The position numbers and the translations under genes are program-made. DNA of 26,821 bases from the IMG/VR virus record IMGVR_UViG_2740892230_000038; one strand, written 5' to 3'. Of this stretch, positions 20,440-26,821 are shown piece by piece. The stretch is from a virus. Lineage: Duplodnaviria > Heunggongvirae > Uroviricota > Caudoviricetes. Under the pieces are notes generated by a model. It saw only the letters and a program-made list of their open reading frames with translations. It was not told the origin of the DNA and made no database searches. Each line of letters begins with the position of its first letter. Within the stretch, counting starts at the first letter, position 1.

Positions 20440-21225
20440 ATGAGTACAGCACTCGCAACGCTGGCAGGGAAGCTGGCTGAACGTGTCGGCATGGATTCTG
20501 TCGACCCACAGGAACTGATCACCACTCTTCGCCAGACGGCATTTAAAGGTGATGCCAGCGATGCGCAGTTCATCGCATTGTTGATCGTCGCCAACCAGTA
20601 CGGCCTTAATCCGTGGACGAAAGAAATTTACGCCTTCCCTGATAAGCAGAACGGCATCGTTCCGGTGGTGGGCGTTGATGGCTGGTCCCGCATCATCAAT
20701 GAAAACCAGCAGTTTGATGGCATGGACTTTGAGCAGGACAATGAATCCTGTACATGCCGGATTTACCGCAAGGACCGTAATCATCCGATCTGCGTTACCG
20801 AATGGATGGATGAATGCCGCCGCGAACCATTCAAAACTCGCGAAGGCAGAGAAATCACGGGGCCGTGGCAGTCGCATCCCAAACGGATGTTACGGCATAA
20901 AGCCATGATTCAGTGTGCCCGTCTGGCCTTCGGATTTGCTGGTATCTATGACAAGGATGAAGCCGAGCGCATTGTCGAAAATACCGCATACACTGCAGAA
21001 CGTCAGCCAGAACGCGACATCACTCCGGTTAACGATGAAACCATGCAGGAGATTAACACTCTGCTGATCGCCCTGGATAAAACATGGGATGACGACTTAT
21101 TGCCGCTCTGTTCCCAGATATTTCGCCGCGACATTCGCGCATCGTCAGAACTGACACAGGCCGAAGCAGTGAAAGCTCTTGGATTCCTGAAACAGAAAGC
21201 CACTGAGCAGAAGGTGGCAGCATGA
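20440..21225 (+). CDS. bet: Bet (Red-beta single-strand annealing protein)
   Basis: 261-aa [77 protein letters not shown]... matches recalled lambda Bet. Confidence 0.9.
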
Positions 21226-21975: not shown

Positions 21976-22830
21976 ATGACACCAGAAATTATCCTACAAC
22001 GTACCGGGATCGACGTGAGAGGTGTCGAGCAGGGAGATTATGCATGGCAAAAATTACGGCTCGGGGTCATCACAGCTTCAGAAGTTCACAACGTGATAGC
22101 CAAACCCCGCTCCGGAAAGAAATGGCCTGACATGAAAATGTCCTACTTCCACACCCTGCTGGCTGAGGTCTGCACGGGTGTGGTCCCGGAAGTTAACGCC
22201 AAAGCCCTGGCATGGGGAAAACAGTACGAGAACGACGCCAGAGCCCTGTTTGAGTTTACTTCCGGCGTGAATGTTACTGAATCCCCGATCATCTATCGCG
22301 ACGAAAGTATGCGTACCGCCTGCTCTCCGGATGGATTATGCAGTGACGGCAACGGCCTTGAGCTGAAATGTCCGTTTACCTCCCGGGATTTCATGAAATT
22401 CCGGCNNNNNNNNNNCACCGCCTGCTCTCCCGATGGTTTATGCAGTGACGGCAACGGCCTTGAACTGAAATGCCCGTTTACCTCCCGGGATTTCATGAAG
22501 TTCCGGCTCGGTGGTTTCGAGGCCATAAAATCGGCTTACATGGCCCAGGTGCAGTACAGCATGTGGGTGACGCGAAAAGATGCCTGGTACTTTGCCAACT
22601 ATGACCCACGAATGAAGCGTGAAGGCCTGCATTATGTCGTGGTTGAGCGGGATGAAAATTACATGGCGAGTTTTGACGAGATGGTGCCGGAGTTCATCGA
22701 AAANNNNNNNNNNATTGAGCGGAATGAAAAGTACATGGCGAATTTTGACGAGATGGTGCCGGAGTTCATCGAAAAAATGGACGTGGCACTGGCTGAAATT
22801 GGTTTTGTATTTGGGGAGCAATGGCGATGA
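21976..22830 (+). CDS. exo: Exo (lambda exonuclease); frame inflated by N-runs at 22406-22415 and 22704-22713 with duplicated blocks
   Basis: [65 protein letters not shown]...GFVFGEQWR; ATGA overlap with preceding bet-end copy; additional partial bet-end/exo-start variant copies at 21222-21324, 21335-21734 and 21745-21979. Confidence 0.85.
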
Positions 22831-22985
22831 AGCATCCTCACGATAATATCCGGGTAGGCGCGATCACTTTCGTCTACTCCGTTACAAAGCGAGGCTGGGT
22901 ATTTCCCGGCCTTTCTGTTATCAGAAATCCACTGAAAGCACAGCGGCTGGCTGAGGAGATAAATAATAAACGGGAGAGTGTATGA
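22827..22985 (+). CDS. Small hypothetical ORF downstream of exo
   Basis: 52 codons [52 protein letters not shown] translated by hand; ATGA overlaps with exo stop and with next gene start; a variant of its 3' end recurs at 23804-23855. Confidence 0.4.
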
Positions 22986-23734
22986 TTCATTTTCACGGTG
23001 GTCCAATAACTCCCGATACCTGTGCGTTGAAAGCCTGGAAAGGCAGACACGCATTCATCAGTTTTGCTAATCCAGCTCAGATTGATCTGGCTTCCGAAGT
23101 CACCCAATCATTTGCTCTTGATAATGGTGCATTCACATTCTGGACAAAAAACAAGGCCGTAGACTGGAATAAATATTACAGATTTGTTGAACGCTGGGGT
23201 AATCACCCTCGTTTCTCATTCGCGGTTATCCCGGATGTTATCGGCGGAACCAGTGAAGAGAATGACGCCCTGATTGCGGCATGGCCTCACGGTAAATTTA
23301 TTGGTGCTCCGGTGTGGCACATGAACGAACCAGATGAGCGATTTATTCGTCTGTGCCATGAGTTTCCCCGCGTCTGCATCGGCTCGATGGGGGAATGCGA
23401 TGCAAAACGACCGAGAGCGTGTCGGGCTAAACTACGCGATCTTATACGTCATGTTGTAGATCAGTACGGCTACCCAATCACCAAGATTCATGGGTTACGG
23501 ATGTTAAATAAAGACATTTTTACTCATGTACCGCTTTCGTCTGCAGACAGCACGAACGTCGCAAGAAATATAGGCATCGACAAATCCTGGGTAGGTTCGC
23601 CATATGCTCCCGCAAGTAAAGAAACCCGTACGCAAGTTCTTGTGGAACGCATTGAATCATTCAACAGTGCCAGTTCACTTAATTACAATGCTGAACGGGA
23701 CGTCTTTACCCCTCAACTGGCATTCGAAGTGTGA
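22982..23734 (+). CDS. Hypothetical 250-aa protein (Cys cluster CHEFPRVCIGSMGECDAKRPRAC), variable cargo downstream of exo
   Basis: ORF with ATGA coupling to upstream small ORF; no family recognised by eye. Confidence 0.55.
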   Translation: MIHFHGGPITPDTCALKAWKGRHAFISFANPAQIDLASEVTQSFALDNGAFTFWTKNKAVDWNKYYRFVERWGNHPRFSFAVIPDVIGGTSEENDALIAAWPHGKFIGAPVWHMNEPDERFIRLCHEFPRVCIGSMGECDAKRPRACRAKLRDLIRHVVDQYGYPITKIHGLRMLNKDIFTHVPLSSADSTNVARNIGIDKSWVGSPYAPASKETRTQVLVERIESFNSASSLNYNAERDVFTPQLAFEV

Positions 23735-23854
23735 GGCCAATATGACAATAGAACATAATAACGCCCTTCGCAGCATTGCCCGTCAGGCTAATTNNNNNNN
23801 NNNGCTGAAAGCCCAGCGGCTGGCTGAGGAGATAAATAATAAACGAGGGGCTGT

Positions 23855-24046
23855 ATGCACAAAGCATCTCCTGTTGAGTTAAGAACGAGCATTGAGATTG
23901 CACATAGCCTTGCTCAAATTGGAGTCAGGTTTGTGCCAATACCAGTAGAAACAGACGAAGAATTTCATACGTTAGCCGCATCCCTTTCACAAAAGCTGGA
24001 AATGATGGTGGCGAAAGCAGAAGCAGATGAGAGAGACCAGGTATGA
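23855..24046 (+). CDS. Hypothetical small acidic protein (alternative occupant of the post-exo slot)
   Basis: 63-aa ORF MHKASPVELRTSIEIAHSLAQIGVRF... preceded by gagggg SD; follows N-run 23794-23803. Confidence 0.4.
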   Translation: MHKASPVELRTSIEIAHSLAQIGVRFVPIPVETDEEFHTLAASLSQKLEMMVAKAEADERDQV

Positions 24047-24122
24047 CAACCACGGAATGCATTTTTCTGGCAGCGGGCTTCATATTCTGTGTGCTTATGC
24101 TTGCCGACATGGGACTTGTTCA

Positions 24123-24338
24123 ATGACACCTCAGCAGGAAAACGCCCTTCGCAGCATTGCCCGTCAGGCTAATTCTGAAATCAAAAAAGCCAGACAGCAG
24201 TTTCCGGATAAAAACGTCGATGACATTTGCCGTAGCGTACTGAAGAAGCACCGCGAAACGGTAACGCTGATGGGATTCACACCGACTCATTTAAGCCTGG
24301 CGATCGGCATGTTAAACGGCGTCTTTAAGGAACGATGA
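24123..24338 (+). CDS. Hypothetical small protein (ALRSIARQAN-containing)
   Basis: MTPQQENALRSIARQANSEIKKARQQFPDKNVDDICRSVLKKHRETVTLMGFTPTHLSLAIGMLNGVFKER; a variant 5' end (MTIEHNNALRSIARQAN) occurs at 23742-23793 before an N-run; start codon uncertain. Confidence 0.4.
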   Translation: MTPQQENALRSIARQANSEIKKARQQFPDKNVDDICRSVLKKHRETVTLMGFTPTHLSLAIGMLNGVFKER

Positions 24339-24436
24339 ACATGAAAAGCAAAATCATCAGGGAGCTACAGGCTCCTTTTTTATTATTCGCATTCACCCTC
24401 AAGCGTATTAACCAACAATTCAGGGATTAATGGAAG

Positions 24437-24593
24437 ATGGCAGACATCATTGATTCAGCATCAGAAATTGAAGAATTACAGCGCAATACAGCAATAAAAA
24501 TGCGTCGTCTGAACTACCAGACTATATCCGCCACTCATTGTTGTGAGTGTGGCGATCCCATAGATGAACGAAGACGCCTGGTCGTTCAGGGTT
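24437..24593 (+). CDS. TraR/DksA-like C4 zinc-finger protein, 3' end cut by N-run
   Basis: MADIIDSASEIEELQRNTAIKMRRLNYQTISATHCCECGDPIDERRRLVVQG; CxxC followed by basic patch, typical of phage TraR-like proteins. Confidence 0.5.
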
Positions 24594-25459: not shown

Positions 25460-25802
25460 GGCCTGTCAGTTTCTTAAGATATCCAGACCAACCGCCACCA
25501 ACTGGATACGAACAGGCCGCCTACAGGCAACACGTAAAGATCCAACCAAGCCAAAATCTCCTTACCTCACAACACGGCAAGCCTGCATTGCGGCGCTTCA
25601 GTCTCCGCTGCATACTGTCCAGGTGAGCGCGGGTGATGGCATAACAGAGGAAAGAAAATGTCACTCTTCCGCAGAAATGAAATATGGTATGCCTCGTATT
25701 CGCTCCCGGGCGGGAAACGAATTAAGGAATCTCTTGGCACAAAGGACAAGCGGCAAGCTCAGGAGTTGCACGACAAGCGAAAAGCAGAACTCTGGCGAGT
25801 AG
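25431..25802 (+). CDS. xis: Excisionase-like (AlpA/Xis-type HTH) protein; 3' extent uncertain, frame overlaps int
   Basis: [57 protein letters not shown]...; aggtaacc SD; immediately upstream of integrase. Confidence 0.5.
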
Positions 25803-26821
25803 AAAAGCTAGGGGATTTACCTGATGTCACTTTTGAAGAGGCCTGCCTAAGATGGCTTGAGGAAAAAGCTGATAAAAAATCTCTCGATTCAGATAAAAGC
25901 CGGATTGAGTTCTGGCTTGAACATTTTGAGGGTATAAGGCTTAAAGATATCTCGGAGGCAAAGATTTACTCTGCTGTAAGCAGAATGCATAACAGAAAGA
26001 CGAAAGAAATATGGAAACAGAAAGTTCAGGCCGCCATCAGGAAAGGTAAAGAACTGCCTGTTTATGAACCAAAGCCAGTATCAACTCAGACAAAGGCAAA
26101 GCATCTTGCCATGATAAAGGCCATTCTCCGTGCTGCAGAACGCGACTGGAAGTGGCTGGAAAAAGCGCCTGTCATCAAGATACCAGCGGTCAGAAACAAG
26201 CGAGTCAGATGGCTGGAAAAGGAGGAAGCAAAACGCCTTATTGATGAGTGCCCCGAACCACTGAAATCTGTCGTCAAGTTTGCGCTGGCAACTGGTCTGA
26301 GAAAGTCGAACATCATAAATCTGGAATGGCAACAAATCGACATGCAGCGACGAGTTGCCTGGGTGAATCCAGAAGAGAGCAAATCAAACCGCGCCATTGG
26401 TGTGGCGCTGAACGATACCGCCTGTAAAGTGTTGCGTGATCAAATAGGCAAGCATCACAAATGGGTGTTTGTACATACCAAGGCGGCTAAGCGAGCAGAT
26501 GGAACATCAACGCCTGCGGTCAGGAAGATGCGCATCGACAGCAAGACATCATGGCTATCAGCTTGTCGTCGTGCAGGAATTGAAGATTTCCGTTTCCATG
26601 ACCTCAGACACACCTGGGCAAGCTGGCTGATTCAGTCAGGCGTCCCATTATCAGTGCTTCAGGAAATGGGCGGATGGGAGTCCATAGAAATGGTTCGTAG
26701 GTATGCTCACCTTGCGCCTAATCATTTGACAGAGCATGCGAGGAAAATAGACGACATTTTTGGTGATAATGTCCCAAATATGTCCCACTCTGGAATTATG
26801 GAGGATATAAAGAAGGCGTAA
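25658..26821 (+). CDS. intD: Tyrosine site-specific integrase (DLP12 IntD / phage 21 type)
   Basis: 387-aa [55 protein letters not shown]...; C-terminal catalytic region ...[42 protein letters not shown] with conserved R/H/Y motifs. Confidence 0.9.

Follow-up and report, generated by a model that had tools for sequence, protein, structure and literature searches.

A DpdA-family gene among the alternative contents of the lambdoid exo-xis region

Introduction

Does one position in the early-left region of lambdoid phages hold alternative genes, and what does the larger of them encode? The question arises from IMG/VR virus record IMGVR_UViG_2740892230_000038 (Caudoviricetes), a stretch of 26,821 nucleotides (nt) that we refer to as the window. 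An earlier note, made from the sequence alone, described a small open reading frame (ORF) behind the exonuclease gene exo, followed by an ORF for a 250-amino-acid (aa) protein (22982-23734, plus strand); behind a run of Ns at 23794 the 3' end of the small ORF recurs, followed this time by a 63-aa ORF (23855-24046). Both ORFs are present in the ORF list, and the N-run is 10 nt long (23794-23803). The earlier note read this as the same flanks bracketing different cargo, and its suggestion of DNA modification as one possible role agrees with our results, which point to a DpdA/TGT-fold enzyme (TGT, tRNA-guanine transglycosylase). On the evidence below we lean, with some reserve, towards a reading in which the 250-aa ORF encodes a minimal phage DpdA that inserts host-made preQ0 sparsely into DNA, and in which the two arrangements derive from two different prophages.

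Results

The 250-aa protein belongs to the phage DpdA family

The 250-aa protein falls in PHROG family phrog_887, "queuine tRNA-ribosyltransferase" (E = 4.5e-98), and so does the DpdA of phage CAjan (E = 8.2e-96), deletion of whose gene leads to loss of 2'-deoxy-7-cyano-7-deazaguanosine (dPreQ0) (PMC6884629). CAjan DpdA (gp35) and the DpdA of phage 9g represent the DpdA1 of the Queuovirinae, which are validated DNA preQ0 transglycosylases. A family alignment of 52 sequences matched CAjan DpdA with an hhalign probability of 98.7% (E = 3.6e-16, 174 columns), pairing LDNGAF with LDSGAF, PVWH with PCFH, KLHGL with KLHAF and SSADS with YSCDS; the motifs LD(N/S)GAF, P-x-(W/F)-H, H-(G/A)-(L/F) and S-x-DS are common to both. 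The two proteins are only ~18% identical, and CAjan DpdA is longer (306 aa), being extended at both termini. Its gene lies beside those for FolE, QueD, QueC, QueE and a preQ0 transporter, with ~32% of G modified, whereas the window gene stands alone.

The window protein is 99% identical to gp34 of Shigella phage SfI (YP_009147480), annotated in RefSeq as "queuine tRNA-ribosyltransferase", and differs from it by few substitutions only, including Y139C. SfI gp34 is listed in Supplementary Data 1 of Hutinet 2019 among phages encoding only DpdA (singletons), which does not support the earlier note's view of the function as unknown. Hutinet 2019 considered the modification status of this third group hard to predict and host-synthesized preQ0 possibly used. 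The gamma-proteobacterial members of the group, namely SfI, HK106 (YP_007151699) and Salmonella phage 7-11 gp032, belong to the same PHROG 887, and the window protein is 37% identical to the 7-11 protein (tblastn E = 1e-27) and 38% identical to that of HK106 (E = 2e-27). These DpdAs measure about 234-266 aa and come from phages without que genes, like the window gene. SfI and HK106 are temperate and carry the gene in their early-left region, with the recombination genes on one side and xis/int on the other; phage 7-11 is virulent, with a genome of 90 kb, and its protein lacks the first ~18 residues.

Homologues were found by tblastn in 111 phage records, including BTP1, SPN3UB and Klebsiella and Vibrio phages. 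The family comprises 6194 proteins at E<=1e-3 in a 90%-clustered database (869 representatives at 50% clustering), almost all of them ~250 aa long and unnamed. In homology, fold, catalytic residues and singleton context, the last three described below, the 250-aa protein agrees with the phage DpdA group.

Fold and active site

An AlphaFold2 model built from the diverse 52-sequence alignment is a (beta/alpha) barrel (predicted local distance difference test score, pLDDT, 93.1; predicted template modelling score 0.90); an earlier run on 31 close homologues had given a weak model (pLDDT 68). The barrel is of the TGT-type (beta/alpha)8 kind. In BFVD, a collection of predicted viral structures, the model had 30 matches at E<=1e-3, the named ones mostly phage "queuine tRNA-ribosyltransferase", and Foldseek against the PDB retrieved generic triosephosphate isomerase (TIM) barrels only. 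Judging from the predicted model, the relation to TGT (PF01702) is visible at the fold level only.

The predicted active-site residues are D47, F51, D85, H113, H170, S187, D189 and S190, of which all except F51 show 94-100% conservation across 203 family members; active-site residues remain near-invariant down to ~32% identity. D47 lies in LDNGAF, with F51 four residues on, D85 lies in PDVI, and the last three residues form S187-x-D189-S190. These motifs also occur in CAjan DpdA, Sonali gp87, Edwardsiella phage ZHS_65, 7-11 gp032 and HK106_029, the CAjan equivalent of D85 resting on a manual realignment of the SVLDG segment that MAFFT had left gapped. Bacterial DpdA and TGT share an invariant general acid/base (Asp95), a base-reading Asp130 and a nucleophile (Asp256); in bacterial DpdA, Phe99 stacks on the base, His181 reads it, and the D95A and D256A mutants are inactive (PMC10164549). 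The D-x3-F spacing of the 250-aa protein equals that of Asp95 and Phe99, and the correspondence to Asp95, Asp130, Asp256 and His181 rests on motif and spacing. By analogy with these enzymes, D189 (in SADS) would attack C1' and yield a covalent intermediate between enzyme and DNA, D47 would act as general acid/base, D85 and H113 would read the base and F51 would stack on it. The predicted reaction is an exchange of guanine for a 7-deazaguanine in DNA.

The cysteines are not a family feature

On account of a cysteine cluster, the earlier note considered that the product of the larger ORF could bind metal; it called the function unknown and saw the ORF as one of a pair of cargos that alternate at one locus. 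This allele does have four cysteines within 23 residues, at positions 125, 132, 139 and 147, with the spacing C-x6-C-x6-C-x7-C and not x7-x6-x7 as described. Canonical TGT and bacterial DpdA bind structural zinc through a CXCX2CX22H motif that follows the nucleophile Asp (PMC10164549), which lends the proposal some plausibility. Conservation contradicts it: position 139 is Y in SfI and in 118/119 close relatives, and aromatic in 193/203 relatives; position 147 is W in 75/84 distant relatives; and position 132 is mostly A. C139 (codon at 23396-23398) is a private Y-to-C change that the window shares with E. coli 2013C-3264 and that might affect activity. No CxCxxC...H motif of the TGT type was found in the 250-aa protein or in the other phage DpdAs examined, CAjan DpdA among them, and the domain that holds this motif in TGT is absent from the 250-aa protein. 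With the two cargos lying, in addition, on separate contigs from different prophages (see below), we regard the metal-binding reading as highly improbable.

The gene stands without a preQ0 pathway

A tblastn search with phage queries, which very divergent genes could escape, turned up no FolE, QueD, QueC, QueE or YhhQ gene, either in the window itself or in 80 related IMG/VR loci searched to ±8 kb; a phage-encoded preQ0 pathway was rejected on this basis. No que gene is annotated in the 13-kb SfI stretch that we inspected either. The window gene is a true singleton. Two distant homologues do lie within preQ0 clusters, Sonali gp87 beside QueC/QueD/QueE and Edwardsiella ZHS_65 beside QueC/FolE, and so link this fold family with the chemistry of 7-deazaguanines.

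In 80 IMG/VR loci with close DpdA relatives, the gene is found between the recombination genes (exo/bet or erf) and orf73/int, an early-left placement that is consistent in phages of Escherichia, Klebsiella, Salmonella, Pantoea and Vibrio. A phage Dam methyltransferase gene is nearby in 12 of these 80 loci, abutting dpdA in 11 and ~5.8 kb away in the twelfth (L163). Dam starts 754 nt after the DpdA start in L099, L100, L109, L125 and L132, and about 530-680 nt before it in L105, L106, L118, L129, L134 and L155. The adjacency suggests, as far as gene order and homology can tell, a two-gene DNA-modification module in related temperate phages. The dpdA prophage of E. coli 2013C-3264 also encodes a protein with a dATP/dGTP pyrophosphohydrolase domain (L003:10888-11379), ~1.1 kb downstream in the same operon.

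The two arrangements come from different prophages

The window is made of 22 pieces with 10-N gaps between them. When these were compared with one another by BLAST, neighbours overlapped by 34-190 nt at 89-100% identity in nearly every pair, and three copies of the junction between the bet 3' end and the exo 5' end were seen (ORFs starting at 21222, 21419 and 21976). The window looks like a reference-ordered scaffold that mixes contigs of several related lambdoid prophages, and is not a single molecule. Piece A (22714-23793) holds the exo end, the 54-aa ORF, the 250-aa ORF and the first 17 codons of a gene starting at ATG 23742; piece B (23804-24593) begins inside orf60a and continues with the 63-aa ORF, orf61 and the start of a zinc-finger gene (24437-). 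The features of both pieces are as follows.

22714-22830, plus strand: exo 3' end (lambda exonuclease), truncated at the contig start; from the ORF list, with 99% DNA identity to the SfI and PhiR5_1 exonuclease genes
22821-22985, plus strand: orf60a (DUF1317), 54-aa form; Pfam PF07026, E = 2.1e-33; phrog_1998
22982-23734, plus strand: 250-aa singleton phage DpdA-family protein, a TGT-fold 7-deazaguanine transglycosylase homologue
22985-23759, plus strand: divergent cassette A, 775 nt, from the shared ATG to the shared AACGCCCTTCGC... of orf61; pairwise contig alignments
23742-23793, plus strand: start of an orf61-type gene with the alternative N-terminus MTIEHNN..., truncated at the contig end; from the sequence
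23794-23803, no strand: 10-N scaffold gap, joining two contigs from different prophage copies
23804-23882, plus strand: lambda-type orf60a 3' end, 60-aa form ending in ...NNKRGAVCTKHLLLS and a stop; frame 1 translation, with 97.7-98% DNA identity to lambda, HK630 and BP-4795
23855-24046, plus strand: orf63 (DUF1382), the canonical slot occupant; Pfam PF07131, E = 1e-30; phrog_292
23858-24140, plus strand: divergent cassette B, 283 nt, containing orf63 together with the N-terminal portion of an orf61 of the Shiga toxin (Stx) phage type; pairwise alignments
24027-24338, plus strand: orf61, Stx-phage-type full length, 103 aa; ORF list; phrog_303, E = 4.7e-36
24043-24126, plus strand: 27-aa strongly hydrophobic ORF (MTTTECIFLAAGFIFCVLMLADMGLVQ), a possible gene that overlaps the N-terminus of orf61 in a different frame; translation
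24437-24593, plus strand: orf73 (TraR/DksA-like C4 zinc-finger), truncated by the next gap; ORF list; annotated DksA/TraR in SfI, BP-4795 and 2013C-3264

Because the pieces tile with non-identical overlapping ends, the two arrangements are slot alleles from two different lambdoid prophages, placed side by side by scaffolding, and not two states of one locus. Indeed, the complete genome of E. coli 2013C-3264 carries both arrangements ~340 kb apart, with the 250-aa gene at 1.36 Mb (100% identical) and the orf63 block at 1.02 Mb (99.6% identical), which is exactly the situation that would yield pieces A and B in a draft assembly. A single locus with two switchable states is ruled out by the separate contigs with their non-identical overlaps and by the different positions of the two arrangements in that genome. 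The flanks that the earlier note saw on both sides of the cargo are homologous, being those of different prophage copies, and the notion of one shared locus does not survive; the origin it had named as fatal to its claim, unrelated loci joined by the scaffold, applies as regards the joining of separate contigs, while the loci themselves are related, as paralogous prophages. What was spotted, correctly, is an ordinary mosaic junction, and its side-by-side display is a scaffold artefact. Since the alternative cargo results from scaffolding the contigs of several prophages, gene adjacency across the N-runs of the window is unreliable and should not be taken as synteny.

The integrase gene at 25658-26821 of the window is 99% identical to that of one IMG/VR DpdA prophage (L096) and 74% identical to that of another (L090), and the DpdA prophage of 2013C-3264 ends differently, with torI next to dsdC. 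Prophages that differ in their integration modules thus exchange the dpdA cassette.

Boundaries of the swap

The region is the lambda exo-xis region, with the order exo, orf60a, slot, orf61, orf73. At the DNA level, piece A matches Shigella phage SfI and Escherichia phage PhiR5_1 with 99% identity, and piece B matches lambda, HK630, BP-4795 and many Stx phages with 97.7-98% identity. The name orf61 follows PMC8614690 and the PhiR30_1 annotation, and Orf73 is TraR-like (PMC8614690). Piece B corresponds to the lambda/Stx series orf60a-orf63-orf61-orf73-ea22, of which the arrangement of piece A retains orf60a, the C-terminal part of orf61, and orf73. The five exo-xis genes are treated in the literature as a conserved block, and orf60a, orf63 and orf61 as pro-lytic early genes transcribed from pL (PMC8614690); here, as in ~2% of E. 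coli genomes, dpdA stands in place of orf63 and the N-terminus of orf61.

The left flank common to both pieces is the orf60a 3' end that the earlier note had seen recur; it measures 53 nt (90.6% identical, 23805-23857 in piece B) and ends exactly at the ATG. The right flank consists of 34 identical nt (100%, 23760-23793 = 24141-24174). The swap takes in the last orf60a codons (54 aa against 60 aa) and the N-terminus of the downstream gene. In piece A the orf60a stop overlaps the start of the 250-aa ORF (ATGA, in the junction sequence GTATGA), and the next gene, preceded by GAGG upstream of its ATG at 23742, begins MTIEHNNALRSIARQAN; a full 71-aa orf61-type gene of the MTIEHNN type is annotated in E. 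coli 2013C-3264 and SfI. In piece B an internal orf61 start at 24123 gives a 71-aa form, MTPQQENALRSIARQAN..., so that the two downstream genes do have different starts, as the earlier note reported.

The 63-aa ORF, located between orf60a and orf61, matches PF07131 with 106 bits (cutoff 27) over residues 1-60 of 60 and is therefore orf63; its product is acidic, as described (11 D/E against 6 K/R). Its overlap with orf61 is 20 nt, which we take to be the same as in lambda. The orf61 of piece B is of the long Stx-phage type (103 aa), as against the truncated 61-aa form of lambda, and the DpdA arrangement keeps only the C-terminal ~64 residues of orf61 behind a new 7-residue N-terminus. The 27-aa ORF extends from the stop of orf63 to the internal start of orf61, with an ATGA overlap at either end; arrangements with orf63 or Dam in the slot retain it, and the DpdA arrangement lacks it. 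From its translation, it could be a small membrane peptide or merely an alternative frame of orf61.

Slot contents in other prophages

Occupancy was compared across 80 IMG/VR orf60a loci, ranked by similarity to the orf60a allele of the window, so that the DpdA type is over-represented among them. The orf60a-orf61 distance takes discrete values.

orf63: distance 268 nt, 56/80 loci, two of them inferred without orf61 where the contig ended
dpdA: distance 760 nt, 15/80 loci
phage Dam (PF05869): distance 634 nt, 2/80 loci
414-aa phosphoadenosine phosphosulfate (PAPS) reductase protein, resembling SspD, BrxP and DndC, with reverse-strand methyltransferase fragments: distance ~2640 nt, 4/80 loci
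not determined, contig ending before the slot: 3/80 loci

The slot is also backed by the complete phage genomes SfI, PhiR5_1, lambda and PhiR30_1. The variable slot proposed earlier thus stands, as a genuine hot spot of recombination that separates orf60a from the next conserved gene and whose contents vary within fixed boundaries.

Dam (PF05869, E = 2e-56) is found in the slot at L002:3268-3825 (PhiR30_1), L028 and L065; in this arrangement orf63 is replaced, and the 27-aa ORF and the N-terminal region of orf61 are kept. The largest insert, 2.6 kb, lies at about 3162-5800 of L022-L025. Its 414-aa protein (L022:3162-4406) matches PAPS_reduct PF01507 (E = 7e-21) and the PADLOC models for SspD (E = 6e-19), BrxP and DndC, and downstream, on the reverse strand, are S-adenosylmethionine (SAM)-methyltransferase fragments and a 210-aa ORF without a Pfam match. 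By these similarities, the insert may be a phage DNA modifier of the phosphorothioation type.

Complete E. coli genomes give a better estimate of occupancy than the IMG/VR proportions. We found dpdA in 100/5426 of them, always chromosomal and at least 99% identical, with the ORF intact in 95 of the 100 and a DUF1317 gene adjoining dpdA in 19/20 sampled rows; the orf63 block occurs in 3173/5426. This rarity relative to orf63, the near-identity of all E. coli copies, which suggests recent spread over long maintenance, and the private Y139C of the window allele would fit a decaying or neutral passenger (moron) that hitch-hikes in a recombination hot spot and is enzymatically inactive in E. coli and Shigella. 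We think this improbable, given the size of the family, the near-invariance of its active-site residues, the number of intact ORFs and the consistent early-left placement across phages of five host genera.

Discussion

The reading that we favour is a minimal phage DpdA. Its family, fold, conserved catalytic residues, singleton setting and variable slot are shown above; DNA as its substrate, preQ0 as its donor and an anti-restriction benefit as its outcome are what we infer. The gene, set in the pL-driven early-left (exo-xis) operon in place of orf63 and the N-terminal part of orf61, is translationally coupled to orf60a, and its product would be a TIM-barrel enzyme of the TGT superfamily that swaps guanine in double-stranded DNA for a 7-deazaguanine base. 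Since the prophage has no genes for preQ0 synthesis, its enzyme would depend on preQ0 that the E. coli or Shigella host produces for queuosine (FolE-QueD-QueE-QueC). After induction or infection, sparse and probably motif-specific dPreQ0, or a derivative, would be placed on the replicated phage DNA before packaging, and the marked DNA would be partially protected, in the next host, from restriction and from other defences that target DNA. A host pool can be enough, as 9g dpdA alone in E. coli MG1655 yielded 790 dPreQ0 per 10^6 nt in plasmid DNA (PMC6884629, Table 1).

Several points weigh against this reading. Pfam gave no TGT match for the 250-aa protein, and at E<=1 none of the 52 members of the family alignment (0/52) matched PF01702, the only Pfam matches being noise; phmmer and a profile hmmsearch against PDB sequences returned GCN4 coiled-coil noise only, with DpdA 7ui4 not matched; and neither NCBIfam NF041059 DpdA nor the PADLOC DpdA model matched the protein. 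CAjan DpdA itself gives only sub-threshold matches to these bacterial DpdA models. The top structural match of the predicted fold is Cap10, a protein-directed TGT relative, by a margin of only 0.9 Z. The protein thus falls outside Pfam TGT; it also falls outside bacterial DpdA, for want of a model match and of the features listed below, and outside Cap10, for want of its partner genes nearby. The reach of our que-gene screen, given above, is a further reservation. E. coli QueF normally drains preQ0 to preQ1, which would leave a small donor pool. The activity of the gamma-proteobacterial singleton clade is a prediction from sequence, and in DNA of the singleton phage 7-11 the base found was 2'-deoxy-7-amido-7-deazaguanosine (dADG), not dPreQ0, at ~0.02% of G, with no modification at all in the singleton mycobacteriophage Orion (PMC6884629). 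In view of Orion and 7-11 the protective effect may be small, and we expect sparse marking with at most a partial anti-restriction benefit.

The comparison with bacterial DpdA is also unfavourable in part. The enzyme of the S. Montevideo Dpd system (PDB 7UI4) has 413 aa, needs the DpdB ATPase and belongs to an 11-gene island, none of which is present here; no dpdB-like neighbour is annotated in the SfI stretch or at the E. coli 2013C-3264 locus. It carries Ins1-3 and a 128-residue Ins8 with the CXCX2CX22H zinc site, all absent from the window protein, which ends ~60 residues past the nucleophile Asp and lacks the Ins8 helical domain and zinc site that bacterial DpdA uses for DNA binding.

The singleton clade may instead have drifted to another substrate or role: RNA or tRNA, protein (a Cap10-like deazaguanylation or transfer), or the sequestering or consuming of host 7-deazaguanine precursors, with a regulatory effect on lysis-lysogeny as for the displaced orf63 and orf61. 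Hutinet 2019 found that the clade clusters apart from pathway-linked DpdA in a similarity network and flagged possible functional divergence. The gene also sits where the pro-lytic regulators orf63 and orf61 belong, and the modification measured in singleton phages ranges from nil to 0.02% of G. Against a drifted role stand the strong profile homology to CAjan DpdA, a validated DNA enzyme, and the failure of 9g DpdA to complement an E. coli tgt deletion (PMC6884629). The 250-aa protein has neither of the elements (Ins3, Ins8) by which TGT holds tRNA. Cap10, from type IV CBASS (cyclic-oligonucleotide-based antiphage signalling system; PDB 9NTN), acts with the QueC-like Cap9 on the N-terminus of a CD-NTase (cGAS/DncV-like nucleotidyltransferase) in a defence operon, and its nucleic-acid surface is remodelled into a dimer interface. 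The window gene, unlike Cap10, has exo, orf60a, orf61 and orf73 as its neighbours, with no QueC-like match and no Cap9-like partner or CD-NTase found nearby, and the trivial structural margin of Cap10 over DpdA goes with a lower identity (10%, against 16% to DpdA). The Dam adjacency, and the alternation of dpdA with Dam and DndC-like genes, likewise point to DNA. We therefore consider a drifted role unlikely, if somewhat less so than an inert passenger, and keep to a minimal DpdA acting on DNA.

A wider proposal can be made only tentatively: that the junction between the orf60a end and the orf61 start serves for the exchange of DNA-modification cassettes of one gene each (solo DpdA, phage Dam, a DndC/SspD-like PAPS reductase) which displace the pro-lytic regulator orf63, and that the solo DpdA works, writing sparse, motif-specific 7-deazaguanine marks from the host queuosine-precursor pool. 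The cargo itself was already known, as a 99%-identical protein is annotated and catalogued and the exo-xis region is a well-studied mosaic; the finding is therefore known in kind. What appears to be little described is that dpdA displaces orf63 and the N-terminus of orf61 at a fixed junction, and that it alternates there with other DNA-modification genes; a limited literature search found no paper stating the displacement of orf63 by dpdA or the alternation with DNA-modification genes.

Should the exchange-point proposal be true, ~2% of E. coli strains would harbour prophages that, on induction, could deazaguanylate DNA, including the chromosome of the strain itself. With an active solo DpdA, the lambdoid and Stx-type prophages of E. 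coli and Shigella could gain 7-deazaguanine marks without biosynthetic genes, which would bear on restriction escape at transfer and on nanopore and restriction-based phage typing. It would also bear on the sensitivity of phages to the recently described glycosylase defences that target 7-deazaguanine DNA (bioRxiv 10.1101/2025.10.29.685425). An active solo DpdA would, finally, answer a question raised in 2019, namely whether the many singleton DpdAs are functional as a group.

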